DNA of 64,000 bases from Pseudogymnoascus verrucosus (lineage: Eukaryota): the NCBI GenBank assembly GCA_001662655.1, contig KV460275.1, one strand, 5' to 3'. This document shows, piece by piece, positions 39,262 to 62,874 of the stretch (its first letter is position 1; each line of letters starts with the position of its first letter). The notes below the pieces were generated by a model. That model searched no databases and was not told the origin of the DNA. It was given only the letters and a program-made list of their open reading frames with translations. Both the position numbers and the translations under genes were made by a program.

Positions 39262-42200
39262 ATGGTTTACAAGTTTGATATCCATGTTGTTCACCTCTCA
39301 GAACTAAAAAAGCACTGGTGGCAACTGGTACATGACCATCCTGTTCGCAAGCGAAGGTTGACACTGACAATCGTAGGCTATCCTGAGTCTTGGTCTCACG
39401 GCAGCATTCATTGGTATTCTGTATATTGGGACCAAGTTGATCCTCAAGGTCCGACGTCTTCTGAGATTGAAGGTAAATTTTCTTCTTCGACGTAGTAATC
39501 TCAATGCCGAGAGATTGATTTACTGACTTCTACAGAGTTTGAAAGACACTTCGACACAACTTGCATTGAATGTTCGGACCTACTTTCAAACACTCAATAC
39601 GGTTCCAATTGCTCCATGTGTGTCCGAAAGGAGCAAGGTCCACAATCCAACATCATTTCGAATATATCTTGGAGCGCTCGATGACCTGGCATCTGGCAGT
39701 CAATCGAGAATACTTTCGGACTGGGATCTAGTTATACTTGATCCGTTGCAACCTGGTGTCAAAAATGCGATAACTTCGACGCCTCGCAGCAGGCGGATAG
39801 CGCTCTTTATTCTTGGCAGGCTCGATATTGAGGCTCTGCTAGGCACAGCGCAGCATGACTCTGATATTGAAGACTTCACGATATATGCGTTGGACTGTAT
39901 CCTTGGTCTCGTCTCCACATATTTCCCTGTCCCGAACGAGAGAAACCATGGCTTTACTGGCATTGTTCTCGCGGGCTGGGAGAATTTATTTTCAGTCGCC
40001 ACACTCCACGAACTCAGTAAGGAACTTTCCAAGAGAGCACTAGATGTATATCTAGAGACAAAGCCGCCTCACTTCCTTAATGAAGTCAATGCTGTTGTCC
40101 ATAACTCAATCGCTGGCTTAGTCATCCGAAATGGTCTTCTTTGGCCCAATGGTGAAAGAAGAGACTGTTTTAATATGGATGAAATGCGCCCAACCATCAA
40201 AGCTTTCATGTCTCAGGAAATTGTTCGAGAATTTACAACAATGATGTGGGAAGAGCTTGACAATAATGCGGTTGTATCAATTTCTGTCCTAAAGAGAACC
40301 TATTCCTGGTCTAGATTTCACAATACTCTGGCATGGATTGCTCCCAGCTATGCACTTTTAGACGCAGAAGCCATAGTTACACAACTAGAGCCTCTGAGTG
40401 CTTTCGATTGGCTGAAGGAGAGTAGCGTCACCGAGCTTCATGACCTCTGGAAAAACAATCAAACTGTAAGAATAGCGATGCAACAACTTTGTCAAGTTTG
40501 CTTCATACTGATTTTGCTCTAGGTATCCAGCGCAAGTTCCCATAGACTAGTGTTTGGTCCTATCAACACTCTCCTTCCAACTTTGCGCACTATGTGGAAG
40601 GACAACACTTGCAACTTTTGTGAAAGCTCCGAGGCTACCTATGATCCAGAATCGGAATCACATGAGCCGGAATGGACTGGATTAGATTGCTTCAAGAAAA
40701 CTGATACCCTTTCTGTATCAGAGACTGGGTTCAATTATGATGGCATGGGATGCTTTCCCATTGGCATAAATGTCACACTGGAAGATTTTGTTCAGGTTGT
40801 CCATTCTCAAAGACGACTACGAAAGCTTGGGTTACTTGATGAGATTGCCCCTAATATCCTCAAAGAATTCGGTATCCTTCTCGGAGATTTTGTCCGATCA
40901 AAACTTGTAGGGCAGTCCATAATTACTTCCCAAATCCGAGATACGATCCTACAACTATCGAGAAATTTGACGGAAACGCTGGACCGCGGAATAAACAATG
41001 TCCGTGTTTACCAAGGTCTAGACACAGGTTTCCATTCCGCTGGTGCTAAGCGATTCTGGGGGGTTTACTATATTCGTGAGTCGCATGGTACGGAGATCTA
41101 TATCTCGTCAAAGTCAGAGGACGTGATTGGTACAATACTTCATACATACCTGTCAAGTCGATACTGTCCTCGTCGTCAGCGCTTCGAAGCTGAGTTTGCT
41201 CTTGCAGATTGGTCAGGTACTCTAGCTCCAAGCCGACGAAGCACAAAGCAAGTCCAACAAGACATTCGATCATTAACACCTTCCGAAAGCCTGATTCTGC
41301 TACAAAAGCTTGCCCTTTACGACTTATCACTGAATAGTTCTCTGGTGATAGGAGTACAAGACGAAGTGGAAGCGCAGCTCATCAAGCAACCCTCAAAAAC
41401 CCAGCTAAAGAGCATCGGCACAGTCGACTATCTCAACGGATCTGTTGATGCAAAGGGCCTTATTTTTTCTCGGATAGCTAGTCATTGCCAGCATGGTCTG
41501 CGACACCCAAGTCAACCTGCTAGCCTGCAACTATTTTCCGATGTAGAAGAAGCAATTCAGCAGATCCTCAGAGACAGAAGAATATCGGACCTTGAATCCA
41601 TACTTATGACCCTACGGCAATCAATGAAATACTCGTGCGCTGATACTGTGACGGATATTCTGGCACTAGCCGTATTCTGTGTCATGCGAAAGTTGGCCTT
41701 TGAGGAGGTGTACATTGAGGTGACTGACAGAAACCCTCTTTTCAACGATCAATCAGATCAAGGAGCCGCGTTTGCGGAACTATTTGCCCTAGGTTCGCGT
41801 TGCGAGGTGTATTTCGATATGTCCCCGAGCGCATTTGGAAAGCTTCTTCTGTTGAAATTTCGAGAGCAATACAACAATCCCCTACGCCAACCACCTCTCT
41901 TTAAAGAAACATCTATGGCACTGCAAACAGCATACTCTGAGCCGCAAATGGATATCGCGCCAATCTCTACGTCCATGAAAATGCCGTCCTATCAGCGTTT
42001 TACGTTTATGGGTGTCTTTGCTATCCCTGCTCTAATAGATGTGCTCCTTTTGACAACTACGAAACATGGTCTCTTTCTTAGTGGTAAAATGAGTGAAGCC
42101 GAGCAAAAATACGCTACCATTGCATTTATGCTGTCGTTACCTCTTTCTGGAGCTATTGGGACTTGGATTGCTTGTGGTGGAACCTATTACCTTGCGTCCA

Positions 42201-45200
42201 TGGCATTTTCAGCAATGAATTATCTTGTGGTCACACGCCTTTTAGGAGGCTTGGTATTCCTGGTCTCCGCCGCCACAATTGGCTTCGTTGCAGTCAGCTG
42301 CGTCACTGGCGTCCAACCTGCCTTGATTTTCTTCCTCTACCTTATCGCTTTGACAGCGTATCTATCATTATTAGCTGCTCTTGCTAATTACAATCTTAAT
42401 GGCTCGTCATTTCAATCCGTAAGTTCAAAAAAGGGTTCCTGCTTCTAACATCACTAACGGCTTGTCAAATTTTAGGGTCGTAAAATTATCCTGTTGTGCA
42501 TTCCAGTTATGTTCCTCTCTCCTGTTATGACAATATTAATTCCAGGATATGACTCTGAAGTTTACCTAGCTGTGCTTTACGTTTTCATTACAATGTTACT
42601 GCTAGGAACTCGACATATTGGATCCCTCTGGACTACGTGGTTTCAAAAAATTGAAATAATCGACGACAAAGCGCTAAAAGACTGGTATCTTGAACGAAAG
42701 ATAATGAGTGAGGATAGAACTCCTCAGATACTCTCAGAACATGCCCTCTTAAAACAGGCCCAGCAAGATATGCTGCGTGAAGTTATGGAGGCTCTCCCTA
42801 GCCTTTTCAACTTTAGAACTACGAAAGATCCCATGGTCCTGAAGCTTGCAGAATGCTATGAGGCAACGTCATTCATGATGGTGGGTCTCTAAATTTCTTC
42901 GTGGACATTCGAGATAACAGATGGCAGGACTGGTACTCTCTTTCTACGGGCCTGCCCACGCCAATTCCATTCAGTTCAACATGGAATATTCAATCCAAGG
43001 TCGCCCTGAAACAACTCGTGGAATCGCAGCGAGGTATCCGATTTCATAATTGCTTCCTCCACTGGCGTCAGGCAGGAGATGAGGTAATGAAGCACCAGTG
43101 ACCCAACGCAATCATTAAAATGCTTACACCTCTAGATCGGCTGTACAGTTCTATACTTTATCGTTGCGCTGCTAGATAAATGGATTGCGCTCCTTGGCGG
43201 AAAACAGTCCATCAGCGGTCAGAAGGGTGGTATACTCCTTGGCTTGACATCAAATAATCCCGAGTTTGGTCATGCCGTTGGATTTGGCCTCGCCTACTAC
43301 CTTATCGGAGCCGTCCTCCTAGATTATAATGCTCAAAAGCTCCACGAACTCGCAACCAAATGCAAACAAGAGATTGTCGCAAACGACGATTGCCTTTTGC
43401 ATGCGACCAGAGAAGTGGCTCGCGAGCGCAGTGCTCTTTATTGGAAGACTTTGCGACTATATTTGCTCCTCGACGTTTGGAGCTTGGCCATCACATCAGC
43501 GATGATGTTGTTGTTTAGTTATACCAAGGATGCCATTATTTTGTTTCTTGCTTATGTTTTCAGCTATACCGGTAAGTGGTTTTTGAATACTAGAGAAGCT
43601 AAAGCTAATGTTTTTAAAGGACTGTTGTGGTACCAGGTTAGTGAAACAAAAACAAAAAAATGAATGGTACTAACCTCTTATGAAAGTATACGAAAACATT
43701 TACAGGCCCTCACGCACTAAAACCTCTCTTAATTAGCGCATCCTTGGGTCTAATAGTAGGCTTCGTCTTAAGATCCATTTTTCCAAATTTCATATACAGC
43801 GACGTGGTTGCACTTGGATTTGCAACATGGTTAGTTGCTATTCTATGTCTATGGGCTGTCAGAATTGTTGGAAGGTCCTTGGATGAGCCTATAAGACTGC
43901 CTAATACTGGTTACCATGTCCTGTACAACCCAGGCCCAGATGCATCTTGGTCGCAAAGCGAGCTCCGGCTGAATTATGATTTACTCCGGTCTCTTCCCGA
44001 CGATAAGCATCCTCTTCTTGATCCTAAGTCATATCAAGGACAGCAGATCCAGTTGATACTGTCATCAGCTTCTCGGGAGAAGCTCTCTGATCTTGCTGGA
44101 CTTGCATTCCCTTCTGCTGGGAAGCTTTTTGAAAACAGTCTTAGGGCCTTCCAAGACCAAAAAGTTGTTGTCGAGCTTGTTTCTATGAAGTACCTTAATG
44201 AAGAAGGACACTCCACCAGAGCTATAAGCTATGCCACTGACGACCTTATGCGCGTTCTTGTTGACTGCGACCCTGTGGCTCTCTCCTCAAAGCAACAACT
44301 ATCACAGCACTGCCTCTACAAGTAAGCTAATATAGCATCCGTTATGCCGCATTCAATGCTAACAGAGTTTGATAGTGTTGCGGAGATAATTTTACACTCT
44401 GTCGCTGAGAGCTTCCTCGATTACAGTCACAGCCATGCCTGCCTATCAGAAAACCTCTTGAAGAGCACAGTTGACCCCGAAATGCGGATGCCGCATATTT
44501 TTAGGTGTCAAGCAGAGTGTTGTTCCAATGTTAACGATGAGACGTTTGCACTGGGTACTTATTACAAGCAAGAGATGTTACAAAACCTGTGTCTAGGATT
44601 CGCCCCCGATCTCACATGGGACAGTCTACCGGAACAGATCAGGAATCATCTCATTCAGCGCTGCATTGGGCAAACAAGCTCCCTAACAGAGGCCAGCAAG
44701 AAATGCGTCCAGTCACTTTTAAACGAGGGCGATTTCAACACCCACCTTGCACGCTGTGATTACGGTGCCAATATGTCGGCGCTGTTCTACGGTGACACCA
44801 AGATATCCCCAACCAGAGCTATAATGAGTTCAACTTCCTCATTAGCGCATGAGGAAGTGAAGAAATACTTGCCCACTCCGTTGTCTCGGTCAATGATGTC
44901 CATGCCACGCCGGACTGCTAGTTATATTTGGCACAAGATTGGAACAATGGCAAAATTCTTTGCCGTCGCATTTGTCGCAGATGCCGAATACCAACGCGAA
45001 CTCAATTGCAGTTTGGATAAAAATCCCAAGGTTGTAGTCGAAATAGTAAGGGTAATCCTTAATGGGATTTGGGTGGCTGCAAAAGCCACACAGAGCCTCT
45101 TGCTTCCTTTTTTTCTTGTAAGCTGAATATCTTCAACTGTCAGATTGCTTGGTGTATAAATCTGACCATTAAACAGTTCCACAACCGGAAGAATGTTGCC

Positions 45201-48200
45201 ACCCTATGGAAGAGCATTCAAGGGAGGAAGATCAGTTTCAAACGGAAGCATATCGACATCTATGTTTCGGATGGTCAATACACTGCATTTATTCATCACA
45301 ATCGTGACGGCTCGTTTAATCTCTACCAATATCGAGGTGAGCATAGCAGCGAACCCAAGTCTCAAGACAAGTTATCTTACGTCAACACCTATTCCGAGAA
45401 AACTTTACTCTTGCGGCGAGAAGAACTCCGCGGCGGGGAGACTGTCAATATTGCAGACTATGACTACTGCAATCTGGGTGAAGGAGGTAGGACGAGACTT
45501 TCTCGATCCACAGGCCCATCTGCCCTGCCCATCACTCGGAGGGTTATTGCTGGTCAGGATCAATTCCAGCTCATGCATTATAATCGAAAGGGATTAATCG
45601 AGTCCGGTTCATATATCAAGGATGGCAATCTTGTTCGGTTTCAGTACCACTACGGCAAGGTCGCGAAACTTGACGGCGAGTTGTTGAGAGCAGAATTCGT
45701 CCTCCCTCATATGAGCTGCACCGTATCTTGGTGCGCCACATCTCCTCACCACTCAGATAAGCTTGATAAATGGGTAATGTCAAAGTTTTATTTATAGGAA
45801 TTTATTTCTGACTCGTTCTAGATATCGAGTTCGGAAGTGACCGAGTCCACCTTTGTTCTCGGCACAGATGTCTGGGAGAGCAAATACACCTACGACCACA
45901 AATGTCACCCAACTATCGCGACCACCTTGAACGGAGAACCTGAGGACACCCCACCGCTGATCAAGTACGACTACTTGGATATCCTCAAGAAGCCCAAAAA
46001 TATCTCCTTCCTCGACGATAACCCTCTATACTCCTTCACTACTGTCCGCCCCAATCCAGTTGCTCGATGGTTGGGACTTTGTACTCGGCAGTATCCCTTC
46101 TGGACATCTCAATCCAGGTATTTGCTTTGGAAAGCATGGAAGAATGATCATGATTATGATGGAGTTGTGGTAAGATGGATGGACGAGCAATTGTTGCGCC
46201 GTGATAATGTTCTGAAGCCATACTGGAGAAGGAGGGATTGGGGTAATCTATCGTCGGCAGAAAGATACCTACAGCAGAATGGTGACGCTGTAATGGCAAA
46301 AATTGACCTAGACATGACGATATCTAGCTGGACCCCGCTCGCTATTACGATGAACGATCTTCTGACCTTTGGACCTGGAGGCGACGCCTCTGCTCGCACG
46401 AGGTCTAAACTTGTCTGCCAGGAAGATGAAGATGATGGTGCTTTACACGTCATTGCTGTTGACACCGGGACATGGCCCAATGAGGTAAGGCTAATATTCT
46501 CCTGTAGGGGATTGATACTGATATGAAAAGGGTGGAGGAGTGTCTGCCTGTCGCCGCGACCTCATTAACAACCTTACGAGTATCAAATGGCACATGGTTG
46601 CAGAATCTGCTAATGATTTCGGTCTTCCCAAGCACCAAATTGAGAGGAATGTACATTCATTAAAGGTAATAGCGCTATGGGGCCTCGATTTGATGAACCC
46701 CACTCACGGTCTGTTCCAAAATCGCTTGGATTCCGAGATCGAGCATATCTCACGCTGCGAAGATCTCGAGGATGTCAAGAACGGCTTCATTCCTATTCTA
46801 GCAGCTCTAGTATATGGCGCCAGGTCTCTCAACTTTGAAGAAAGCGGCATCAAGCAGCTAACGCGTGCGCTCTTAAGTCTCAACGCCTACTTTGGAGAGG
46901 GCAGGCATCATTGGGGCATTGTCTGGAACAGCAAGTTTGTCAAAAATGCATGGAGGCGACTCTGGCTTTCTAAACACTCTGATAATGCCCGTCCGTGCTC
47001 TGCCTGGCTTGCTACCGAGTTACCAACACTGGCACAGTTGGACCAGGGCCTCGAGCTATGGTCCCGGTATCTCTTCATCTTCTCCATTCCAGTTCCGGAG
47101 AAGATGCCAGACGTGTTCCAGGCCTCGCACCACAGCGTCAGCGCCTCATATGGCATCGTCTGCAAGGTTAAGCGACAGTGCATCTTACAGATTTGGGACC
47201 ATGCCATTAGCTGGCGGGAAACCAACCTGTATCTATCTTCAGCTCTGTGTCCACTAGCGCCTTTTGTGAGGAACTCGCTATTGGGCCTTTTGCGTATGAC
47301 CTCTGTGCTTACTCTACACCATGCGGATACAATCTTGCCGTGCGCGGACATCTTCAATCCTAGCTGGGAAGTTGAAATCGGGACATGCGAAGGAAGAATT
47401 GAACATCGCAATGCTTTCAGAAGGAAGGTCGACCCAGTGGTTAATGGCATTACGGATACGCGGCGGTTCATCCCTGTAGAAATCAAGACCAAGACTCCAA
47501 CAATCACCATGCTGTCTCATGTCTGGTATGCCAAAGATATCAAGACTGCAATACTTGCTGCAGACATCATCGTCAATGAATGGGGTTTCAAGGATTATCA
47601 GCTCGATGTATATGGGGCTCTCGATAAGGCACCCGCATATAGCACTAATTGCCTAGAGATGATCTCTACCAAGTCACTACGGCGGAATGTTGCTTTGCGA
47701 GGGGAAGCAGATCCGATTGCTGTTCTCGAGCAGACTGTAAGTTTTTCTTGTTTCCCTTTTAAGAATTATCTAACTCCTCCCGAGTGGCTCTTCCTCAACT
47801 CGTCTGTTTCCGAAGGTTTGCCCCTCGCCCTTGGCGAAGCGGCACTCACGGGCGCACCCATTGTCTGTACGGATGTCGGCGCTTCCCGTCGTGTCCTAAC
47901 AGATCCGCAAACCAACGAGTGTTACAGCGCCATCGTAGCACCAAACGATGCACGCGCCTTGGCAATAGCGCAGATCCACTTACTCGCCATGATGGGTGAA
48001 TGGCATTCCCACTCGGACAAACCAGAGACACAACGTTCATATACAAGTTCTCATTCGTCACTACCGGACAGCAGCTTAGGATTTGACACTTCAAGTTCGA
48101 GCAGGCTTAATAATTCCACTACTTCACTTGTCGAAAAAGCCTTGACTTCGCTTCCGGAAAACCCTACGAGGGAAGATGTGGAAATCATAACAAGACGCAT

Positions 48201-48603
48201 GTATGAACAAACACCTGCTCGCAAAAGGCTTGGAATGCGTGGTAGGGACATTGTGCAAAAAAGCTTTTGCGGGGAGCGGTACCTCCGAGAGCATGAACAA
48301 ATGCTTTGGATCGGCAAAGGAATGAAGGATATGCGCCAGCTAGAGGTTGTTGCAGAGTCACCTATAGAGAGTGCTGACATGGGCTATCGGTTCAGGGCAA
48401 CAAATACTACGATGGATGCTATTTCGCGCACGAGCCAGACGCAGTCTTCAACTCCACTAAGCTCAAGGCTAACATCGTCTAGAAGCACAGGCATAACACA
48501 ACTAACTTCGGGTAGCACGGATATAACGAGTGTGTTAACAGATAGTGTACAGACTATAGTAAAGTTGCCTACAAAAACGGTACTAGGATGTTCCCATTTA
48601 TAA
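39262..48603 (+). CDS. gtb3: Very large multi-pass membrane GT4 glycosyltransferase (GAG synthase), many exons
   Basis: Consecutive ORFs join across GT-AG introns from MVYKFDI..WWQL|AILSLGL (TM). Motifs EEVYIEVTDRNPLFNDQSDQGA, TM bundles, DTGTWPNE|GGVSACRRDL, IWDHAISWRE, VDPVVNGI, KDIKTAI and FLNSSVSEGLPLALGEA (GT4 EX7E). Start codon is inferred. Confidence 0.9.
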
Positions 48604-49344
48604 TAGTTGTAAATAGTCTAAATATTTTATCTAATTTAAATAATTTAAATAAAGTAAAAATTAACTAAGTTATAGTAGAGAAAGAATAATATAGTATTAT
48701 TAATTAAGGTAGGAGAGCTATTCTAATATTATATGATATAGTTCTTAATATACTCTATTTAAAAATTAAGCTCCTTTATAGTTTAAGGAGTCTTTAAAGT
48801 CTAATTATTACTCTTAACTATAGAAGAAGTTAAAGTTCTTAAGTATAGATTTAAGTAAGAGAGGACATTCTATAGCTTATATAAAACTAGTCTTATAGCT
48901 TAGAATCTACTCTTAATATTCTACTTTATAAATATAGCTTTAAATACTTCTTTAAATATAAAGGGAAACTTAAGCTACCCCTAGCATTTATAGTAAGTTA
49001 ACTATAATAACTACTTCCCCCCTACTAAATATAGGCTTAGTATATATATATATAGGCTAGTTAACTATAATAACTTAACTATAATAACTACCCCTAGCCC
49101 CCCCCCTTATAGGATCTATCCTTAATAAGGCCCTCTAGAGCTACTCTAACTAATAGTAGTAGAGATAGCCTTTAGTAGGGGTAGTAAGTAAGGCCTTTAC
49201 CTACCTCTTAAAGTAGGGTATACTTCTATATATACTCTATAGCTACTACCTATAGCCCTAACTAGAAGTCTAGGTCCTATACTTATAGTAGTACCTATAT
49301 AGCCTATATAGGGCCTAGCTTAAGTATCTAAGGGAGCTCTTTAA

Positions 49345-49873
49345 TGTAACGCTAGGTCTTAAACTATAAGACTTATAGAGGTTTCGTTGCGTTAGTTTAC
49401 TTAATAGAGGAGGTAGGGGATTAGACACAAAGGCTTTTATAAAACACATTATAGTATATAACAAATACTATATTAAGTTAAGCATAAAGCTCCTATCTAA
49501 GAAATAACTATCTACTTATATAGTAGCGTCGTGCTAAAGGGAATAGTTGGAATAGTAGACTCTCTAACTATTCTTACTATTCCTACTAATCTAATTACGT
49601 GTGCGTCCTATAAGAGGTGCTACACTTATTATAGGTACTGATTCCTATAGGTACCCTTCTAAGGAGGCACCTTGCTCTACATAGGTGCCTTTCCTAATAG
49701 GCACCTTTCTTTTGCTAGGTACCTTCTAAGAAAGGTACCTTTTTCTAAAGGTGCCCTTATTAACTAAGCTACTTACAATCTCTACGTCCATTTCCTGCTG
49801 CTAATTAGCTGCAAGCTATTTTACCTTATTATTCTATCTTATAGCATATAGGTTGCATGTTTTAGCTATAACA
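49345..49873 (-). repeat. 3' LTR of family A element
   Basis: TGTAACGCTAGG...GCTATAACA; direct repeat of 55981-56509. Confidence 0.93.
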
Positions 49874-49986
49874 CTAGGTCCCCTCCCTTAAGGCCTAGTC
49901 CTATAGGCCATTGCTAACTAAGAATCCTCTAGCCTACTTAAGTATAGTAGGTCCCCTATATTTGTAGGGTAGGCAAGGCTACGACT

Positions 49987-50541
49987 ATGTCTTCCTCTAA
50001 ACACTTAAAAATCAAAGAACGTAAACTGCTCGCTAACTGCATAACCTACAAAGGGGTTAAAATGCCTTCCTATTCCTACTATAAGAAACGAGGTCTCTAC
50101 TGCCTTGCTTCTACATCCTCAAAACGATGTAATAAATGTGTTCGTTTAAATTCTTACAACTGTGACGTCTCTAGCCCTTCTACTAGCAACTAGCAGTTAC
50201 TATAGAAAGAAGAGGACTGTCTTTAACTTAAAACTTACATAACCTATGAGGCTGTAGTAACTACTATAGCCTGTCTTAACTGCCTTAAGCAGTAGTAGGA
50301 TCTCCTTAAGACCTAAGGTACTAAGATGCTTTGCTGCAGTCTAAAGACCCTTAACAAACTAGAGGAGGTAGAAGAACGTAAGCGGCAAGAAGCTAAAGCC
50401 TACAGTCACCTTGCTAGTCCTTCTATAACTAACCCTAGGAGCGCTATCCCTAAGCACAACTACCTATTAGCCCTTTCCCCTAGGTTCTTTAATCGTTAGG
50501 GCGTTAGTAGTAGAACTCTGCTAGTAACTCTAGGCAGCTAA
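49987..50541 (+). pseudogene. Antisense accessory ORF of the Gypsy element: Zn2Cys6-like motif plus coiled coil, RIP-damaged (184 codons)
   Basis: Single frame ATG 49987 to TAA 50541; internal stops are TAG/TAA. YSYYKKRGLYCLASTSSKRCNKCVRLNSYNC becomes C-x2-C-x6-C-x8-C-x2-C-x7-C if two TAT codons revert to TGT. Followed by E/K/R-rich helix. Confidence 0.7.
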
Positions 50542-53500
50542 GGTTTCTCCTTAACTCCTATAAGTTGTCTGTAGGTTCATAACCTTTCCATTTTATTAGA
50601 AACTCTTCTTAGTGTCTTACTAACCTTCTGTCTAGAATCGCCTTAACCTTATATTTAATGATCTCATTCTTAGGTTAGAGTTTAGTGTCTATTGCAATTA
50701 GGGCGTCCCCTCTTGCTAGTTCTAATAATAAGACATAAAACACTAGGTAGAGTCTAGAGTTCTTAGGTAGCTGTAGCTTGTAATTAACTAAGCTAACCTT
50801 TTCTAATATCTTAAATAGTCCTAATTTCTTAAAGTCCAACTTCGTACTTAGTCGTTTCGTTTTAATGTGCTTCTAGAGTAGGTATACTTTATCTCCCTCC
50901 TTAAAGGCAGGTTCTATACTATACTTCCTATTTACATATATAGTAGATCGTTCATTTAAGAACTAGATGTCTGTTGTAAGTTGTTTCTAGAAGGAAAGTA
51001 TCTTCAATACTTCTAACGTTCCTTCCTTAGAGTAAAATTTATCTAGTCTTAGCGTCTTATATGCCTCTAGTTACTATCTGTTATTAGTAAAGAAGGGTAA
51101 GACTTTCGTTACCTCTAACAGTAATGAATTATATGCAAACTCTACTAAATGTAGGTACTAAACCTAGTTGTCCTGTTTAGTATTAACATAGCTTTGTAAA
51201 TACGTCTCTAACGTCTAGTTAGTTCGTTCTGTTTGCCTATCTATCTATAGATGAAAAGCTGTAGACAGCTTATAGTTTGTTCTAAGCTACGCCATAACTG
51301 TTTGCTAGAATTTAGATGTAAAGAGCTTGTCTCGATCTGAAATTATCTCGTCTAGTAGTCTATGTACTACAACAATGACTTTTAGGAAGATATAAGCTAA
51401 TGCCTTTATGTCTAATGCTTCTATAAACAGCGTAAAGTAGGCTTCCTTTATAAGTTAGCAGTTAGAGACTATAATAGCGTCTATAACAAATCCTATCATT
51501 AGTTCCTTTAATGGCAGCAACTTAACAATGAAGTTAATTGCTATTAAGGACTATGCTTGTCCTAGTGTTAGTAGTGACTTTAAAAGTCTATATAGTGCGT
51601 GTCTATTTGCTTTTAACTTCTAATAAATGTTACATCCTAACATAATTGTTTCTACCTACTTCCTTAAACCTAGGAAGTAGTAGTGTTATACAATTCGTTT
51701 AAAGGTTTATGTTACTCCCTAATAACTATGTGCTAGTAACGAGTGTTGTTCTTACACTAGTAGGCGTCTCATTTAACTTAGGACATACACTAACCCTTTA
51801 AATTAGATCAACCCTTGTTTGTTAATAGAGAAGTTTCCTTCAACCTTATTTAAGGTTTGCTTTGCTATTTTGTCTGTTATATAAGCATTCTTAAGTCTCT
51901 GCTTAAGTTCTATGTCTTCTACAATGGCAATTATAGCTAGTAGTTCGTTGTATTACATTCCTATATCTATTTTCTTTAATATTGCTCTAGGTCTTTCTTC
52001 CTTTAGGCCAATGTAGTTAGTCCTTCTACTAAGAGCATCTGCTCTTACATTCTTAGAGCCCTTATAATAGGTTATTGTAAAGTTGTAGGCTACGAGGGTT
52101 TCTGCCTAGTAGACTTGTCTATAGTTTAAAACCTTAGTTGTAGTGAAGTATATAAGGTTCTTATAATCTGTCTACACTTACACTATGTAAGTAGATCCCT
52201 TAAGATATACACGCTACTACTTAAAGGCAACAACAATAGCTAGTAACTCCTTGTTATAGATGTTATAGTTAAGCTCTATAAGTAATAGTTTCCTAGAGTA
52301 GTATGCAATTAGTTTAAACTTACTATTCTTGCCTAGCTGATTTAGACATACTCTAATTGCAAAATCAGAAGCGTCTGTCTTAAGGACGATCTTCTTTATA
52401 GGGTTAAATGTTATAAGGATAGGTGCCTCTATAAACTTTGTCTTAAGTTCCTAAAAGGCAGCCTCTACTTTGTCTGTCTATTTAAACACGAGATCCTTCC
52501 TAGTAAGCTCTATAAGTAGTTAAGCTACCTTAGAATATCCTATAATAAACTAACAGTAGAAGTTAGCAAAGCCTAAGAAGGCTTATACTTCCTTAACTAT
52601 AGTTAGTGTTAGCTATCCTAACACTACTATAACCTTTACTTAGTCTATCTTAATACTGTGCGTTCTAATAATATAGCCTAAGAATTCAACTTAGTTCTTA
52701 TAGAACTTACATTTCTCTAGCTTTAATAGTAGGTTGTATTCCTTTAGCTTCTAGAGGACAAGCTTAACATACTAAGCATATTTGTCCTTGTTTGCTAAAT
52801 ATACTAGTATATCGTCTAAGTAAACAATGGTAAATATGTCTAGATATTTATATAAAGCGTTATTCATTAAGCGTTATATAGATATAGGGGCGTTAGTTAG
52901 CCTAAAGGGCATAACTTAATATTTAAATAGGCTATAGTAGGTATAGAATGCTGTTTTCCATTCCTTGCTATTAGCTATCTAGATTAGGTTGTATACGCTA
53001 CGTAGATCTAGCTTAGTAAAGATCTTAGCTCCTTAGAACCTATTGTGTAACTCATTAATTAATAGTAAGGCGTATTAATCCTTTATCGTTATGTTGTTTA
53101 ATACTTAGTAGTCCACATAGGGTTGTTTGCTCCTATCCTTCTTAGGAACCTATAACATTAGGCTTCCTATAGGAGATTTAGACAGTCTAATAAATCCTTT
53201 CTTAAGGTTATTGTTAATATATTCTTTTAGCAGTTTTAACTCATCTACTAACATCTAGTATATTAGTCTAAACGGTGGACTCTTTCCTTCTTCTAAGGGT
53301 ATTACATAATCCTATAGTTAGTGCTTAGGAAGCGCCTTGTTCTTAGGGCCTTCCTAGAATAGCTACTTGTATTCCTTATACTCTACTAGTATATTCATTA
53401 GTAAGGGTGCCTAGGCTAGGTCACTAGGCTCTATAGAGGTTGCACACACCTTACGTTAGCCTTAGGAGGGTTCCTCCTATTATAGTGTGTCCGTTTGTTG

Positions 53501-55980
53501 TTTATACATATACTAGCTCATTACAACTTTCTTGTTCTACTAGTCAATTTAGGGGTTGTGTTTCTTAAGCTATAGCATACTAAAGATACATGCATAATTG
53601 TCTATATGTATAATGTTAAATTAGATCGTTTCCTTGTGTCTACGTAGCATAACCATCTCTAATAGGACTGTTTTATAGGTTACCATTCCTTTATTAGTTA
53701 AGATAGGCTCTCTATCTATAACCATTAATAGGTAAGGGTTGGCTTTTAATTGCATCTTAAAACCTTGCGTATCTACTACTTTCTTTGTTATAAAGTTGCC
53801 TATTGCTCTAGAGTTAATTATTACTTAGAGATGTCGCTTTTATACCTTAGCAACTACATATAGCTACATGCTACCTTCTATAGCACATAGCTGTTTCATA
53901 CTAGGCCTCTTCTCGTTGCTTGCTAGTAGCCTACTATTAAGGACTCCTAGTTTTTTAACTTATTAGAGGGAGAATAGTATTTGTCGTCCTCTATTAGCAG
54001 TCCTAATAAGGGCAGTCCTTCCTATCTTACTGCCTCTCTTAGTAGGTATAGGTATTTCTTATATACCTATTTACTCTTTATAGGTAATTCTCCTTTAGAC
54101 TAACTGCATCTAAGGGCATAAACCTATTCTATGTCTTAAAAGTGTATCTTAGGTAAAGATTAAGGGAATAGCTAATGCTAGTGTTTCTTCTTCTAGTAGA
54201 GTTTGTAGTTGTCTTTACTATAGTACTCCTAGTAGACATATGCATACTAGGGATAATTAGTCTCTATTGTATCTGCCCTTGCTAATTCCCGTTGTCCCTT
54301 TACCTATTTGCTGTCTTCCCTTAGAGGTATAGTAAACGTCTCTAATTGTTCTATAGCTCTCTATTCTATTTAGGTAGTAGGTCTTATGTTTTCCTATTAA
54401 ATCATGTTTCTAGCTTTCTCGTTGTACTTCTTTAGGGCCCTCTTTCTATCCTAGTAGTAAAGTTTAACGCTTTTTACACTCTTTAGCATAGCTATATACT
54501 TAACATCTGTTTATAGTCTTCCTACTTTTAGAACTAGGTAGTCTTCTATCTCTAATGTCGTTCTAAGCTGTCTAAGCTCATTAGTTAGTATGTTGTAGTA
54601 TCTCTAGAGGTTGTCCCTATAGTTGTCTACCTTGCATTCTAACAGGAGTCCCTATAACAGGTCCCTATAGATGCCCTTAAGTATAGGGATTCTCCTTAGA
54701 GCGCTAGGCTTGTCTTGTTTGTCCTTAATCTTTAAGTAGGCGTGTTTTGCTATACGTTATACTATGCTCTTATACTACAGACTCATTAGTTCTATAGGTG
54801 CAAGCTCTTTAAAGGTTCCTTGTTCTAAGACAGTAAGAGATTCTGCCTCTAATTCCTTATCTAAGCTTTTATCTTCTAGGGTGCTATCACCATTAATTCC
54901 CTAGTCCTATTTGTTTATAAATGTGGCGTTTAACTGCATTCCTAAGGCGTTATAGCCTCCTTAGCCTTGCTAGGTAGCGTTAAGTTGTTTGCTGAATTTA
55001 TGTCTACTGTTCCCCTTCTTTAGCTGTCTATAGTCTTAGGCTATATAACCTAGCTTGTTATAGTTAAAGCAAAGTTGTTCCTTAACTTACTTATCCTTTT
55101 TTAGGTTACAGGGTTGTCTAGGTTTAAATGTAGCATTGAGTTCTATTAGGTCTAACTAACAGTTGTCTTATAGGTGTTGTTCCTATTGTCTACCTTCGTT
55201 CCCTTAGTAGGGATAACTTTTCTTAGGTTTGTTATAGGTCCATCGTTCTTTCTAGAATTTGTATAGCCAATTGTTAATTTAGACTATATGCTTAATTAGC
55301 GTCACTATGTCTGTTAGTTGTTGTTCTAAGTAGGTAAGTTCTATATGTACATAGCTCTTTAGCCTATGTTAGTAGTAGCTAATAAGTGCACTAGCGTCCT
55401 ATCCTATCTAATTACTATATCTCTAGAATTCTATAGAGTACATAAGGGCGCTACCTATCTACTTAAGCGCAAACAGGTAGTCTACTATAGTCTTAATCTC
55501 ATTAATATCTTTAAACATATGTTAGATCTCCTTATAGAATCCTTTCTAGCTGCTAAACATAGTTTAGGTAGCCGCTATGCTTCTATTAGTACTTTTATGT
55601 TAGAAGTAGTCCTTAAGGAAGGGTTCAATCCATTAAAGGGCCTCTCCTTATAGGTAGGACGAAGTCTATAGAGCATAGCTTTCTCTAGTAGGAAACTTGT
55701 TGTTGTTAAAATGCTAGTATAGTTTAACCTATAGTAGGAATACTTTAAGTTCCTTTTAATTGCTAGAATAGGTGTTAGGGAGCTTAATACACAAGGCCTC
55801 CCTAAGTTCTAATGTTGTAGGCGCGTTAGGCATCTCTTCGTTCTTAGTAGTAGGTCCCTAAGACAACTATAGGGTAGGTGTGTTAGGTTGTCTAACAACA
55901 CTTCCTCTTAGGCTTAGAACATTTAGAGCTATAGTTGCTTTAGTATATAAGCTAGTACCTTATAGAAGTGGTGCTTAAAG

Positions 55981-56509
55981 TGTAACGCTAGGTCTTAAAC
56001 TATAAGACTTATAGAGGTTTCGTTACATTAGTTTACTTAATAGAGGAGGTAGGGGATTAGACACAAAGGCTTTTATAAAACACGTTATAGTATATAACAA
56101 ATACTATATTAAGTTGAGTACAAAGCTCCTATCTAAGAAATAACTATCTACTTATATAGTAGCGTTGTACTAAAGGGAATAGTTAGAATAGTAGACTCTC
56201 TAACTATTCTTACTATTCCTACTAATCTAATTATGTATGCGTCCTATAAGAGGTGCCATACTTATTATAGGTACTAATTCCCATAGGTGCCCTTCTAAGG
56301 AGGCACCTTACTCTATATAGGTGCCTTTCCTAATAGGCACCTTTCTTTTGCTAGGTACCTTCTAAGAAAGGTACCTTTTTCTAAAGGTGCCCTTATTAAC
56401 TAAGCTACCTACAATCTCTACGTCCATTTCCTACTGCTAATTAGCTATAAGCTATTTTACCTTATTATTCTATCTTATAGTATATAGGTTGCATGTTTTA
56501 GCTATAACA
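55981..56509 (-). repeat. 5' LTR of family A element
   Basis: Same 529-bp sequence; TATATAA on the minus strand at 56152-56158; eight AGGYRCC motifs at 56251-56391. Confidence 0.93.
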
Positions 56510-56904
56510 TTTAGCAGCTATAGGCTTAGTGCTCCCTAGGACATACTAGCCCCTAAGTAGACTAGGGCTAGTCCTATAGTAGCTATTAGTAGCCTCTAGG
56601 TTATAGATAGCTAGTAGTACCTTACCTATATAGAAGGGCTTATAAGAAACCTTAAGATAATAAAGGTATATATATTAAAGGTATACTAGTAAAAGCCTAG
56701 CCTATATAAGAGGGGCCCTCTATAGTAGGGTTATAAGTATTATAGCTCTTAGAGGAACTATAGACTATATAGGGTTCTAATGTTAGAACATAGTATCTAC
56801 TATTAGAAACTAGATAGTATCTAACCTTATTAGGTTAAACAACTAAGCTAAGCACTAGAGCATTAGTAGTACTAGACCTAATTAGGTCTAGGGACTAAGG
56901 TAGG

Positions 56905-57439
56905 TGTAATGCTAAGTCTTAAACTATAAGACTTATAGAGGTTTTATTACATTAGTTTACTTAATAGAGGAGGTAGGGGATTAGACATAAAGGCTTTTAT
57001 AAAACACGTTATAGTATATAACAAATACTATATTAAGTTGAGCATAAAGCTCCTATCTAAGAACTAACTATTTACTTATATAGTAGCGTTATACTAAAGG
57101 GAATAGTTAGAATAGTAAACTCCTTTACTATTCTTACTATTCCTACTATTCTATTATATAGGGTTCTTATAAGGAGGTGCCTATAAATAGTCTAGTACCT
57201 ACTATGTCTAGTACCTAGTAATAGTTAGGTACCTAGGAAGAGTTAGGTGCCTACTCTATCTAGTACCTAGTAATTCTTAGGTGCCTAGGAATTCTCTAGT
57301 ACCTATAGAAGTAGGTGCCTAAGAAAACTCTATTACCTAATGTTAACCTTACCTTAAGGGCAGCTAACTCACAAACATGTTTATTACTACTATACTTAGG
57401 GTGTTAGTAATAGCACTACTAAAAACCCTAGCTATAACA
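56905..57439 (-). mobile_element. Solo LTR, family A variant with a different U3 half
   Basis: TGTAATGCTAAGTC...GCTATAACA. Roughly the first 250 bp match the family A LTR and the remainder differs. Flanks GTAGG/CTAGG. Confidence 0.8.
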
Positions 57440-58589
57440 CTAGGTATATAACCTAGGAGTATAAGAGCTAAGTAGCTCCTATATCCTATAGTCTTAAGAG
57501 TAGGAGATGTTATAGGATTAGTTAGCCCTAGGGACCTCTAGTCCTTAGAACTAATTACATTATAAGACCTATGTAATAGATAATAATAATATGTTAGATC
57601 TTTAATATCCTTTAGCCTAATGCTACTATATAAGTAGATAGTTAGTTCTTAGATAGGAGCTTTATACTTAACTTAATATAGTATTTGTTATATACTATAG
57701 TATGTTTTATAAAAGTCTTTATATCTAATCCTCTACCTCCTTTATTAAGTAAACTAATATAATAAAACCTCTATAAGTCTTATAGTTTAAGACCTAGTAT
57801 TATACTTTAAGCACTACTTCTATAAGGTACTAGCTTATATATAAAGTAACATGTCTTCTATTAGAAAGAGTAAGTCCCTAGAGCCTACTACCCCCCTAAC
57901 CCTAGTAGCTATAGTAATAGCTATAGTTATAAATAAATAAGTTATTAAGGTTTAGATGCCTAAGCCCTATAGTAGAGAACAACATAAGCTTAAGATTTTC
58001 TCCTTAAGTGTAACTTATACATTAGGTTTAATACTTATATGTTAGCTAGTAAAGCTAACTAGGTCTTATAGGCTATTACACTCCTTAAGGGAGTAGCCTT
58101 TAACTAGATTAAGTTCTTTATTAACAACTACTTAGAGAAGAAGGGACCTAAGGGACAACTCTATACTAATATAGTAGTTACTACTAGAGAAATCTTTAGA
58201 ACTTAAAAGGGATTTAAGATCTAGATTACTAAGGTGTTTAGTAACTTAAATACTAAGAGAATAGTAGAACAACACCTACTAAAGATCTAACATATAGGAT
58301 TAGTTATGTCCTATACTACTAAGTTCTAGTAGTATATAGAATAAACTAATTAGAATAATAATACATTATAAGTAAGGTACTATAATAGCTTAAAGGACTC
58401 TATTAAGGATAAGATTACTTATAGCGTCTATCTAGATAATTTAGAGAAGTTAATCCTTACTACTACATTAATTAACAATTACTACTATAAGCACTAACTT
58501 AAGAAGGGAGGGTAGAAACCTACTTAGTATTATAATAAGTTTCTATAACCTCTATACTAACACATTAATTAATAGAGTAATCTAGGTTA

Positions 58590-60878
58590 TAGTGTTTTAA
58601 ATGTAGATTATAAGGATATAGGTTCACTTAAGAACGCTCCTAGGAGAAGTCTTATAGAAGAGTTCTCCTAGAAGTAATAAGCTTCTAGAAGAGTTCTCCT
58701 AGAAGAGTTAGTCTACTAGAAGAACCCTCCTAGAAGAGGAACTCTCCTAGAAGAGAATTTATATAATTAGATATATTAGATATAACGTAGGTAGACATAA
58801 CCCTGCGTACAATAGGACCCTACACACTTTTTGCAAATTCCCTACCCTCTTACTTTAGAATGCGTTTTATCTACCTTCTACTATGTTAGTTATTACTAAA
58901 GAAGCAAAAATCATTCTAGCTATTAAGGCTATTTAAACGTCTAGAAAGCTAAGCTGTTAAGCTGCTACAAAGCTTTATAAAGTTCCTAAATCGTTACTTA
59001 GGCTTAGAATGAACAGCTACCTTCCCCTCCCTAAGCAACAGCTAGCAAATATCAAATTGTCTAAGTTAGAGGAGGAAGTGATTGTTTAGAATATACTTAA
59101 GCTAGATTCTAGAGGGTTTACACCCTAGCTAGCTAGTGTAGAAGATATAGCTAATTTTATTCTTAAATCGCGTAGGGGGACGTGTGTTAGAGGCTGCTAG
59201 GCACAGTGGTTTATATAACGACAACTAGCCCTTAAGATGCGTTTTAATCGCGTTTATGATTTCTAAAGGGCCTTATGCAAAGATCTTAAGCTAATTAGCG
59301 TGTGGTTTTAACTAGTAGAAAATATAAGGGCAAAATACAGGGTTTTAGACTGCGACTTCTATAACTTTAACGAAACTAGCTTTATAATAGGTGTGATTTG
59401 CCCTATAATGGTTGTAACCTATATAGATCAACGTAGTAGAGGCAAGGCAGTTTAGCTAGGGAATTAGGAATAGGCTATAGCAATTGCTTATATTAATAGT
59501 AAAGGCTAGAGTGTTCCTCTATTTCTAGTGGTTTAGGGCAAGAACCACCTTTTAAATTAGTATATAGACAGTAGCCTCCTACCTAACTAGGTTATTAAAC
59601 TAACAAGTAATAGATAGACAAATAATGAGACAGGTCTAGAATAGCTAAAACACTTTAATAAACACACTGCTACTTATGTAAGGGGTCTATATTGAATACT
59701 AGTCTTAGATAGGCATAAGAGTTACAAATTAGCTAAGTTCTAAGAGTACTATAAGTTACACAACATTATAACTCTTAGACTGCCTTCTTACTTGTCTCAT
59801 TTAACCTAGCCACTTAATGTTAGGTGCTTTAGTGTGTTAAAGCAGGCGTATAGTTAGTAGATTAAGACGTTTATTAAAGCTTATATTAACTATATTATAA
59901 AGGTAGAGTTCTTTCTAGCCTTTATAGCAGCATATAAGGAGTTAATGACAGCCTAAAACTGTTAGGCTAGATTCTATAGAGCTGGCTTAGTGCCTTTTAA
60001 CCTATAAGCAGTGCTTTTAAAGCTTAACATAAAGTTATGAACTCTAACTCCCTCTAGACCTTCTACTGCTAACACTACCCCTTAGGTCTCCTAGACCCCT
60101 TCTAACCTAACTAAGGCTCTTTTATAAACAACACTTGTTTAAAATCAGATTACCCGTTACTAAGGGAGCTTACCAACTCTACTTTTTAAGATAGTTGTTG
60201 CGCTAGCAAAGGGTATAGAGCAACTAGCCTATAAGAACACCCTTCTATCTACTAAGGTATATACCCTTTAAGTAGCTAATAAAGCCCTTAGTAAACGCTA
60301 TAGGGCTAAAAAGGCTTGTGTCTATAAAGGGGGTGCACTTATAGTAGAGGATGCATAGGATATTATTATATAGGAGGATGTAGATAAGCAGATACAACGC
60401 AACGTATGTGTAGTAGGGGGTAGTTATAGGGAGGGGCAATAGTCTAGGCAGCGCTATAAGATCTGTAGAAAAGCTAGTCATAACGTACGAACTTGTTAAG
60501 AAGCTATAGATATATCTAGTTCATTTAATTCCTTTTAGTTATAGTTAATTTAATGTGTTGTAGTTAATTTATTAATATTTAAAGTTTAATGCTAAGGAAA
60601 AGTGCATAGGGTCCTGTTGTGCGTAGGGTCATGTCCACCTACGTTATAGATATATTATTATATCTATTAATATCCCTATATCTATTAGGTATAATGCTAC
60701 TATATAAGTAGATAGTTAGTTCTTAAATAGGAGCTTTATGCTTAACTTAATATAGTATTTGTTATATACTATAATGTGTTTTATAAAAGCCTTTGTGTCT
60801 AATCCCCTACCTCCTCTATTAAGTAAACTAATGTAACAAAACCTCTATAAGTCTTATAGTTTAAGACCTAGCATTATA
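58590..60878 (+). mobile_element. Solo LTR (third U3 variant) inserted in gag and split by the pogo element
   Basis: R/U5 homology at 60690-60878 ending GACCTAGCATTATA. The U3-like part at 58590-58784 has repeated AGAAGAGTTCTCCT units. Left end approximate. Confidence 0.6.
58785..60644 (+). mobile_element. pogo/Fot1 (Tc1-mariner) DNA transposon, 1860 bp, RIP-inactivated
   Basis: ~46-bp TIRs beginning ACGTAGGT, with TA on both flanks. Transposase frame 58883-60538 has HTH, YNF(D)ET(G)F, VLD(G)H(E)S(H), HLT(Q)PL(D)V and a C-terminal Cys/His knuckle. Confidence 0.93.
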
Positions 60879-61582
60879 CTTAGGTTTAGAAGAGACCTAA
60901 GTAAAGGAGCTATTAGACTTAACTAATAGAGCTTAATGCTACCTTTAAATAAGGTAACTAACCCTATAATCCTAATAAAGAGTAATAGCTTAAGGAATAA
61001 CTCTACTTTAATTATAATAAGCCTAGCTATATAGCTAGGAATTATAAGTAGCTAAAGAAAGGGAATAGAGGGTAGAAATATAGTAAGTAAATTAATGCTA
61101 CTTAGCAAGGGTAACTAGCTACTATGTCTAAAGGAAAAGAGGTCTAGGAAGTTACTACCTAGAACCTTAAGGATTTAATATGTTAAATAGAGAAGATAAG
61201 AGCAACGATTTATTAGTAGTTAAAGAGGTCTTTACTAGTTCCTAGGAACGTAGAATAAGTGCCTTTAAAGAAAGTATATAAAAGACCCTCTTTAAGGAAT
61301 AAGTAGTAGGAGTAGTAGAAGTCTATAAGGAGATAGTACTTTAAAACGTTACTAATAAAGGAATTCCTATACCTAGGCTACTAGTAATGTAGTAGGGTAC
61401 TATATAAGACTAGAAGGTTATAGTCTATAAAATGAAATGCTAACCTAGATACCTTACTTAGTAGGAACTATATAGAGTAAACTATATAGAATTAGAAGCT
61501 ATAGAATAGCTAAAGTATAAACTTTATAAGTATAATGTCTAGGATGCTATTACTAAAGGAAAAATCATTAATATATATCATC

Positions 61583-62874
61583 TATAAGGACATAGGGCAC
61601 TGTATTATAAGAAGTTACATATAGGAGTGTAAGTTAGATATAAGTTAGTACTATCCTATAGGTCTACTATAAAGGATATAAAAAAGATGAAGGTGTAACC
61701 CTATATGGCTATTCCCTTAAAATACCTAAAACTGCTCTAACTTAGCTAGCTCCCTATTTGCCTAAGGCTTCCTTACGTTATGTGCCTAAGGCTGTTAGTT
61801 ACAACTAACCTATAACAGCCCTAAGTCTTAATGGCACTACATAACGGCTATAACTACCCTAAGTAAGGAGGCATCCTTATACTACCCCCTACCTTAAGAA
61901 GGTGCTTTGTCCTTAAAGTATGTAAGCCTATACTATATATAAGTTGTTGTATAGGTTGTGTAGTGTAGAGGAGGAATTAAGACTAAGGAGCAACTATAAT
62001 AAGCCTTCGTGTAGGTTACTAGGTAAGGTATAGGCATAAAGACTAGAATGCCCTTTGTTTGTTAAGAAGGCTAATGGTAGGCAGCTGTATAGGCAGTAGA
62101 AGTAGTCTAAATCTGTTTACATAAGGTTGCGTCTTTGTTATGTATATAGCAGTTAGTAGGCAAGGGTCTATATTAGTATCGAATAGAGTTTGCATAGTAT
62201 ATGTGTTATCCTAGAATTTTAATGTAAAGGGGAAATTTAGCGCTAACCTAATTTAGACAGCTTTGTTATAAGCTAGAATATGAATTTAAGCTTTGCCTAC
62301 AACTTGTTGTTTTCTTTACAACGACGCTAAACCCCCCCCCTCCTAAGACTAGTAAGTAGCCCCTCTAATAGTATAGCTAGATACTAATAGGTTGTTTTTA
62401 GATATAAAAACACATCTAACGGTTTAGTAGGTGCTAGGACTATGCTAGCGTAGTAGTGATAACTTAGGCTAGGCTAATAGGAAATTGTAGATTTCTAATT
62501 TAAAGATACTAGTTCCCCCTCCTCCTAGCGCCCTTACTATGGCTTTCTACTAGTAGTATATACACTATGTGTACACTAAAGGGTGTAAGAAGGACAGAGA
62601 TCCTACTGTCTTATGTATGTAGAGCTTAAAAAGCTCTAAGTGTAAGCGCTATGTAGCCTAACACATAACGTATGTTCTAGTAGGTTCTTGTTTAGCTTTT
62701 AGTTTTATAGTTTGTCTGTCTGCCTATTGCTAACCTCTAGAGATAGATCTCCTAGTTTACTAGCCTAGAGTACTAGAAGCTCCTAGCTGCTAAGGCAGCA
62801 ACCCCTCCTGTCCCTACTGTCATTAAGGCTGCTATAGTAGAGATTAGGTGTGTAGTTACATTAGCTACTACTAA
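61583..62874 (-). mobile_element. LTR retrotransposon family B, copy 1: 299-bp 3' LTR (61583-61881), PPT and 3' internal region; heavily RIP-mutated
   Basis: TATAAGGA...TCCTTATA (RIP form of TGTAAGGA..TCCTTACA), followed by CTACCCCCTACCTT (PPT on minus strand). Colinear with copy 2. Confidence 0.8.

Follow-up and report, generated by a model that had tools for sequence, protein, structure and literature searches.

The 64,000-nt window analyzed here (Pseudogymnoascus verrucosus contig KV460275.1) contains a complete long terminal repeat (LTR) retrotransposon on its minus strand, with both LTRs, a primer-binding site (PBS), a polypurine tract (PPT), gag, and pol with a chromodomain end. The order LTR-gag-PR-RT-RH-IN-chromodomain-PPT-LTR (PR, protease; RT, reverse transcriptase; RH, RNase H; IN, integrase) and a 5-bp target-site duplication identify it as a chromodomain Ty3/Gypsy element (Tf1/Sushi-related chromoviruses). 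The two LTRs, 529 bp each, are 95.7% identical. The element is strongly changed by repeat-induced point mutation (RIP), with a TpA/ApT ratio of 2.0 and a substrate index of 0.56, compared with 0.73 and 1.34 in the neighboring gene. On the strand opposite gag-pol, between pol and the PPT and 3′ LTR, lies a third gene. Its relatives in this genome form four protein subtypes, each with its own repeat array just upstream of the LTR TATA box, while the DNA between gene and array reassorts. A reading of this stretch from sequence only (the sequence-only reading) had placed a 184-codon frame at this position. The frame was confirmed. It shares its final 113 nt with the end of pol, a segment that takes in the last helix of the chromodomain. 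The features of the element are as follows.

49340..49344 (left) and 56510-56514 (right), no strand: target-site duplication, 5 bp, with one mismatch between the copies
49345..49873, minus strand: 3′ LTR, 529 bp, from comparison with the 5′ LTR
49874..49986, plus strand: leader from LTR to ATG, 113 nt, with the PPT on the minus strand at 49874-49891
49987..50541, plus strand: antisense accessory gene (subtype A), intronless, 184 codons plus stop, dead by RIP; open relatives are L077/P0010 and P0027
50071..50163, plus strand: six-cysteine cluster, codons 29-59, with tyrosine at two positions in this copy; relatives match Zn_clus, PUT3, HAP1, and GAL4 weakly
50182..50376, plus strand: long predicted coiled-coil-like helix ending in the conserved M-x-R-R-G-L...L-D-E-L motif, placed by offset from the P0010 AlphaFold2 model and by conservation
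50429..50541, both strands: 113-nt overlap of the acidic/aromatic antisense tail (plus) with the chromodomain end and basic Pol tail (minus)
50432..53959, minus strand: pol (PR-RT-RH-IN-SH3-chromodomain), RIP-broken; tblastn with L079 Pol, 64% over residues 3-1158, and Pfam on intact relatives
about 50504-50653, minus strand: chromodomain, within pol
54973..55422, minus strand: gag, matched part only, RIP-broken
55970..55980, minus strand: PBS
55981..56509, minus strand: 5′ LTR, 529 bp, from comparison with the 3′ LTR

The copy in the window is dead. Its frame at 49987-50541 contains seven internal stops (codons 69, 73, 80, 103, 104, 110, and 171), which the sequence-only reading had missed, and only 68 codons are open after the ATG. 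Codons 29 and 32 encode tyrosine here and cysteine in the natural open relative L077. In all, 139 differences separate L077 from the window gene, 104 of them G-to-A or C-to-T changes. Because of the seven stops and the tyrosines at two cysteine positions, this RIP-killed copy cannot make the protein. The same reading had obtained the pattern C-x2-C-x6-C-x8-C-x2-C-x7-C by reverting the two tyrosines, and natural sequences bear it out: L077 has cysteine at both positions, and L021, a copy from the own genome, retains the complete set of six. In addition, an in-frame ATG farther upstream in one leader type (L077:173-211) lengthens the protein by 13 residues (P0010, P0015, and P0011).

We then examined whether natural copies behave as a gene. 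Fifteen own-genome copies aligned gap-free over the entire frame, and L051 contains a frame of 183 open codons that shares 113 nt with an integrase-SH3-chromodomain frame and has tyrosine at the third cysteine position. Open members of the window's subfamily are present in public data (P0010, which is L077, and P0027). Among the matches listed, 29 of the 30 own-genome copies hold stops or are truncated. Between the open copies L077 and L079, the 143 codons outside the pol overlap showed 53 synonymous and 5 nonsynonymous changes, a ratio of nonsynonymous to synonymous differences (pN/pS) of 0.03, and the integrase end of the same pair showed 0.09. Outside the overlap, the L088-L092 pair showed 19 synonymous changes and 1 nonsynonymous change, and two further close pairs of open copies showed 5/0 and 4/0. 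The ATG was preceded by a purine at position −3 in 16/16 copies (four starts were chosen by eye). These results confirmed that the frame is a real gene under strong purifying selection.

Alternatively, the frame could be the shadow of a gene on the sense strand, or a fragment of a host gene that is carried along passively, and the in-register sense frame does have low pN/pS values, 0.04 to 0.12 in close pairs. However, the antisense values are lower still, and among 16 natural copies, which had been selected for an open antisense frame, the three sense frames over the same DNA were open in no more than 2, 3, and 0. In addition, the cysteines, the start context, and the overlap phase are conserved across families about 40 to 60% identical, which makes this explanation extremely unlikely. 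A sense-strand env-like third open reading frame was rejected by the same counts of open sense frames.

The position of the gene within elements is conserved. Thirty-five metagenome loci were found with patterns derived from the antisense protein alone, and the SH3/chromodomain end of pol lay directly downstream on the opposite strand in 29 of them. The remaining six were four loci that end less than 50 nt from the match, L106 with reverse transcriptase directly downstream, and L107 without a pol match in 236 nt. Grouped at 70% identity, the 35 loci form 27 families, of which 23 show the antisense arrangement. The overlap between gene and pol was 89 to 200 nt and had the same phase in 16/16 measured cases. 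In the own genome, all 28 integrase copies of this Gypsy family carry the antisense gene, and it was found in none of nine regions of a distant Gypsy family, where RIP reduces the sensitivity of the search. The sequence-only reading had named three outcomes that would count against it: a broken consensus or missing cysteines, homologues without LTRs, and no selection. None of them appeared.

The family is large. A profile search returned 107, 745, and 1,759 clusters at E values of 1e-30, 1e-10, and 1e-3, respectively (the weak tail was not inspected), and the six-cysteine pattern occurred in 121 of 150 representatives among the matches listed. Named members, from protein records only, come from Pseudogymnoascus, Sclerotinia, Stromatinia, Rutstroemia, Acephala, Fusarium, Annulohypoxylon, Monosporascus, Gaeumannomyces, and Cytospora, and they include the S. 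sclerotiorum protein P0238 and the Stromatinia protein P0138. Matches in the ESM Atlas were Ascomycota clusters only (scores of 0.94 to 0.96), and no relative of the antisense protein was found in the viral contigs searched. The gene belongs to a large ascomycete family and is carried by a clade of chromodomain Ty3/Gypsy elements. Its history is partly separate from that of pol: L130 and L115 share pol (1.00) and have different antisense genes, and the gene tree showed no significant agreement with the integrase tree (rho = 0.13, P = 0.18, 13 elements). Two neighboring elements (L096:188-841 and 6466-7116; an assembly join is possible) have near-identical integrase ends and deeply different antisense genes, and the gene therefore appears to be a swappable cassette.

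The predicted protein of about 185 residues consists of a basic N-terminal helix, a likely Zn2Cys6-like cluster, a long helix, the MLRRGL motif, and an acidic/aromatic tail. The cysteine spacing (L021 and L077) lies within the Zn2Cys6 pattern C-x2-C-x6-C-x5-12-C-x2-C-x6-8-C. All 18 full-length homologues have five of the cysteines, and the remaining one is present in 90% or more; the 108-row alignment A3 was mostly motif-filtered and is no test of cysteine conservation. The AlphaFold2 model of P0010 (predicted local distance difference test score, 86) has the basic N-terminal helix, two short cluster helices, helices at residues 79-130 (52 residues) and 135-156, and a loose tail. Outside the cysteines, the most conserved residues lie in the MLRRGL helix. 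In 102 of 107 sequences, the N-terminal domain carries a net positive charge. The C-terminal tail is aromatic-rich and net negative in 74 of 76 parsed sequences, and in this respect it is like an activation domain.

Searches pointed to the same domain. The best sequence match in the PDB was PUT3 (E = 0.017, and 0.039 in a second search), all top Foldseek rows were Zn2Cys6 proteins (root mean square deviation of 1.7 to 3.1 Å over about 30 residues in the best local rows), and the LAC9 cluster appeared at rank 16 in the structural comparison (33 residues, 1.9 Å, Z of 2.2). Pfam Zn_clus matched 8 of 18 members at an E value of 0.1 or less (best, 2.1e-4), and several members are labeled Zn(2)-C6 proteins by automatic annotation in public data. 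Several results weigh against the assignment and what it implies. The Foldseek E values were 0.76 or worse, a wide structural search returned nothing at a Z of 5, and Zn_clus (PF00172) gave 15 bits for L021 against a curated cutoff of 21. The position four residues after the second cysteine is Gly in 53, Asn in 12, Asp in 10, His in 9, and Lys in 4 of 107 sequences, and the acidic tail lies mostly inside the Pol overlap and may be shaped by it. Weak profile and fold scores are expected, since the domain is only about 30 residues long, and on these comparisons the protein very probably carries a Zn2Cys6-like cluster. In Gal4, the lysine four residues after the second cysteine reads DNA (CGG). 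Because this lysine is kept in only 4 of 107 sequences, a binding site other than CGG would be expected.

We next compared the LTRs for candidate sites. Their order is fixed across distant families: first a sequence able to pair with the PBS, then a TATA box about 30 nt farther upstream, a short head-to-head GGA-type array, CACGTG, and a variable distal part. In the window, the corresponding features of the 3′ LTR are as follows.

49478..49489, minus strand: stretch about 30 nt downstream of the TATA box, complementary to the PBS in unmutated relatives; probable transcript start
49515..49523, minus strand: TATA-like box of the LTR, with a position conserved across families
49538..49583, no strand: TATA-proximal inverted array of U3, with two GGAATAG and two CTATTCY; proposed cognate sites of subtype A
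49595..49601, no strand: E-box position (CACGTG in unmutated relatives), the border of proximal and distal U3
49615..49755, no strand: distal AGGYRCC array, which does not follow protein subtype

The complementarity to the PBS is 8 nt long, and the PBS motif was found in 11 of 34 loci examined, most of the others being without that region. Self-priming is a feature of Tf1/Sushi elements in the available text of PMC6317226. The PBS is complementary to the predicted transcript start, as expected for self-priming, and 49478..49489 is the probable start of a self-priming transcript. In 16 of 20 parsed metagenome loci, the top 5-mer of the proximal array was repeated beyond shuffles (P of 0.05 or less).

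The four protein subtypes of the own genome are 50 to 59% identical, while their integrases hardly differ. A separate proximal motif goes with each subtype: GGAATAG in subtype A (the window), GGATAG in B, GGAACTG in C, and GATATC/GATAAC in D. The 30 own-genome copies gave 21 full U3 parses, and L138 was parsed by hand in addition to these; two copies had no start anchor, and the rest had gaps or contig ends. The arrays were compared with one copy per haplotype, in nine haplotypes, and with transitions ignored. The class of the proximal array matched the protein subtype in 9/9 haplotypes (exact label test, 2/5,040), and the same test gave 0.89 for the distal array. Proximal identity was 0.87 to 0.98 in the 7 same-subtype pairs and at most 0.86 in the 29 other pairs. 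In contrast, distal array identity averaged 0.70 within subtypes and reached 0.97 between them. The rank correlation with the gene was 0.49 for the proximal array (P = 0.0026), 0.13 for the distal array (P = 0.28), and −0.19 for the leader. The 325 to 405 bases between the proximal array and the gene reassort, with the distal array and leader lying nearer to the gene. Linkage alone predicts the opposite pattern because the leader and distal array sit between the gene and the proximal array. In another sample, D-like proteins (79 to 81% identical) retain GATATC-type arrays and a B-like protein (64%) retains CTATCC arrays, all the DNA between being different in both cases. These results confirmed that the proximal array and the gene are coupled.

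This coupling bears on the choice of target sites. The sequence-only reading had counted eight AGGYRCC repeats in U3 and proposed them as binding sites. The count holds for the 5′ LTR; the 3′ LTR has seven exact copies and two AGGYRCT, and GGYRCC occurs only twice in the 5,300 nt of the element interior. The repeats were rejected as cognate sites: different subtypes have the distal array in common, it varies within a single subtype, and the LTRs of the other sample lack long distal arrays. Because the distal array does not track protein subtype, the AGGYRCC repeats are probably not the target, and a better candidate is the inverted array next to the TATA box. The idea that RIP had masked CGG triplets within the repeats was also rejected, as the unmutated L079 has GGYRCC. 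Thus, the proposal of an element-encoded accessory DNA-binding factor retained its antisense gene, Zn2Cys6-like cluster, long helix, and selection, and lost AGGYRCC as its sites.

Several further observations concern these LTRs. The entire proximal array is tandem-duplicated in some of them (L083:5560-5700 and L086:130-270). Contigs of other organisms share R/U5 and the TATA box with L051:2080-2140 and then diverge, with GTTATCC/GGATATC, GGACTC/GAGTCC, and CTATCC as proximal motifs. A related LTR at window positions 56905-57439 adjoins the element and has an A-type proximal array with a different distal array of 52-bp tandem units; this distal type is found with both subtype A (L138) and subtype C (L128). 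The CACGTG E-box follows the proximal array across distant families. Tye7, a basic helix-loop-helix (bHLH) factor, reportedly regulates sense and antisense transcription of Ty1.

The pattern would be explained if the antisense gene encoded a subtype-specific activator of the element's own LTR, and we give this reading a probability of about 0.5. An antisense promoter in the 3′ LTR would transcribe the gene, and the protein would bind zinc and oligomerize. The oligomer would then bind the head-to-head GGA-type array just upstream of the LTR TATA box, beside the E-box of a host bHLH factor, and would turn on genomic RNA in a subtype-specific positive feedback. An element whose array does not fit its own protein would not be activated and would die out, and for this reason array and gene would stay matched while the intervening DNA and pol reassort. 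At about even odds, a widespread clade of fungal LTR retrotransposons would encode its own sequence-specific miniature Zn2Cys6 switch for transcription. Its gene and U3 sites would fit each other as lock and key, diversify as a pair, and move between elements independently of gag-pol. Some observations speak against these proposals. The nine haplotypes are related to each other and their classes were assigned by the analyst; the margin is narrow in one case, with a same-subtype minimum of 0.87 against a different-subtype maximum of 0.86. Four of the 20 parsed metagenome proximal regions had no significant repeat, and GATC-type arrays are common to deeply different proteins (L080, L082, L086, L088, L091, and L096). 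Inspection by eye across distant families revealed no residue-to-motif code, and the proximal arrays also fold as hairpins.

The coupling could instead be historical, the subtypes having diverged as blocks whose middle was spread by gene conversion, with Gag, integrase, or a host factor as the partner of the protein. Conversion tracts keep both flanks in place without selection, and the conserved non-cysteine residues of the MLRRGL helix could be a protein-binding surface. However, the tracts must each end at the 8-bp E-box despite much longer shared flanks (R/U5, 0.92 to 0.97; leader, 0.86 to 1.00). Breaks between gene and pol are common, as in L130/L115, yet a mismatched array was never seen, and the motif is kept in the other sample. 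We consider this history unlikely.

The hairpins raise the possibility that the array acts as RNA, in the 3′ U3 copy or the antisense leader, and that the protein is a Tat- or Rev-like RNA-binding factor for export, packaging, or 3′ end formation. Five own-genome arrays fold at −14 to −31 kcal/mol (without a shuffle control), and the canonical DNA-reading lysine is missing. However, the numbers of units differ between the arms, the spacers diverge while the motifs persist, and the array lies upstream of the TATA box, beyond the 5′ end of the sense RNA. Hairpins also arise as a by-product of inverted protein sites, and an RNA-binding role is quite unlikely.

The sign of regulation was considered separately. 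A repressor that binds the array and limits copy number could act by blocking the TATA box, which the array abuts, and self-limitation may help elements in RIP-active hosts. However, unrepressed mismatched recombinants should arise and spread, and 0/9 haplotypes are mismatched. Strict matching would thus favor a positive factor, since an element escaping its own repressor would not be purged, and the acidic tail also speaks against repression. A repressor is very unlikely.

A positive effect could also be indirect. The same protein and array could keep methylation or heterochromatin off the element's own LTRs, as an anti-silencing factor like VANC of the Arabidopsis VANDAL elements, with no direct recruitment of the transcription machinery. 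These hosts silence repeats by RIP, the protein subtypes are 50 to 59% identical over nearly the same integrases, and the subtype-specific, fast-turnover tandem motifs resemble VANC targets as described in the accessible part of PMC5735166. However, the array is short and fixed just upstream of the TATA box rather than spread along the element, the architecture resembles Gal4-type activators, and the own-genome copies are unprotected from RIP, as the proportion with stops or truncations shows. We regard anti-silencing as a minor possibility. According to the same accessible text (PMC5735166), VANC is likewise encoded by its element and has relatives matched to tandem motifs that are specific to each element and change fast; however, it belongs to a DNA transposon, is an unrelated protein, and has binding and demethylation established by experiment, whereas covariation is the evidence here.

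The activator reading can be compared with other known systems. The Gal4-type Zn2Cys6 factors (Put3, Hap1, Gal4, Leu3, Ppr1, and Pho7) share the six-cysteine spacing, two short helices, a basic N terminus, and a long helix that follows. In contrast, the element protein is retrotransposon-encoded, has about 185 residues, lacks the middle homology region, and has an extra N-terminal helix. It has Gly, Asn, or Asp rather than Lys four residues after the second cysteine, and its candidate sites have a GGA core rather than CGG triplets. Other counterparts are the retroviral accessory regulators Tat, Tas, and HBZ and the antisense open reading frames of plant elements (maize Grande gene23, RIRE2, Retand, and PvRetro13). 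The plant frames, set beside ours by description, lie in long 3′ regions, whereas the Pseudogymnoascus gene overlaps pol and has a nameable domain and candidate targets.

The closest layout is that of brtn, an antisense gene between pol and the 3′ LTR in Boty-like elements of Botrytis and Sclerotinia (Zhao et al. 2011, PMID 21802103, as cited in the accessible parts of PMC8365987, PMC4227169, and PMC7264820). Like brtn, the gene described here sits at this place, in antisense, in a chromodomain Gypsy element, the comparison with BRTN being by layout only. Because a Sclerotinia protein falls in the family described here, brtn probably belongs to it. A Monilinia transcript resembles both truncated Pol and BRTN in the available text of PMC5987419, and Boty consensus sequences differ at terminal regions only in that of bioRxiv 2022.03.07.483234. 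A review, in the sections accessible, calls the function of antisense extra genes of LTR retrotransposons unknown and names no zinc cluster for brtn (PMC7264820). In our literature search, no paper assigned a zinc cluster or cognate sites to a gene of this kind, Zhao et al. 2011 and other subscription papers being outside the reach of the search, and within the same limits we found no published account of selection, breadth, or array coupling. The layout is already published, and what is new is the four subtypes, each with its own TATA-proximal array while the intervening DNA reassorts.

With this gene, one antisense extra gene now has a recognizable domain, strong selection, and hundreds of relatives in Leotiomycetes and Sordariomycetes. 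If the activator reading is correct, Gypsy elements thought to need only gag and pol would carry a self-made, subtype-specific regulator, in a circuit like those of complex retroviruses or VANC, and antisense extra genes of LTR retrotransposons would have a first function. Solo LTRs could then bring host genes under control of the regulator, many "hypothetical Zn(2)-C6 proteins" in fungal annotations would be transposon genes, and protein-array pairs could serve as compact orthogonal switches for fungal genetics.

The surroundings of the element contain further features. A very large multi-exon host gene at window positions 40523-48603 ends just before the AT-rich block, and we take its last frame to resemble a family 4 glycosyltransferase. 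Pieces of a same-family element lie in the opposite orientation at 57609-60882 (LTR fragments at 57609-57841 and 60689-60882; gag-like sequence at 57997-58521). They are interrupted at 58781-60648 by a 1.87-kb element with 51-bp inverted ends, presumably similar to a Fot1/pogo-type DNA transposon, and an end of this inverted-end element also sits in the TATA box of L138. At 61585-63869, a tandem duplication of about 1.25 kb has one copy much more RIP-mutated than the other.
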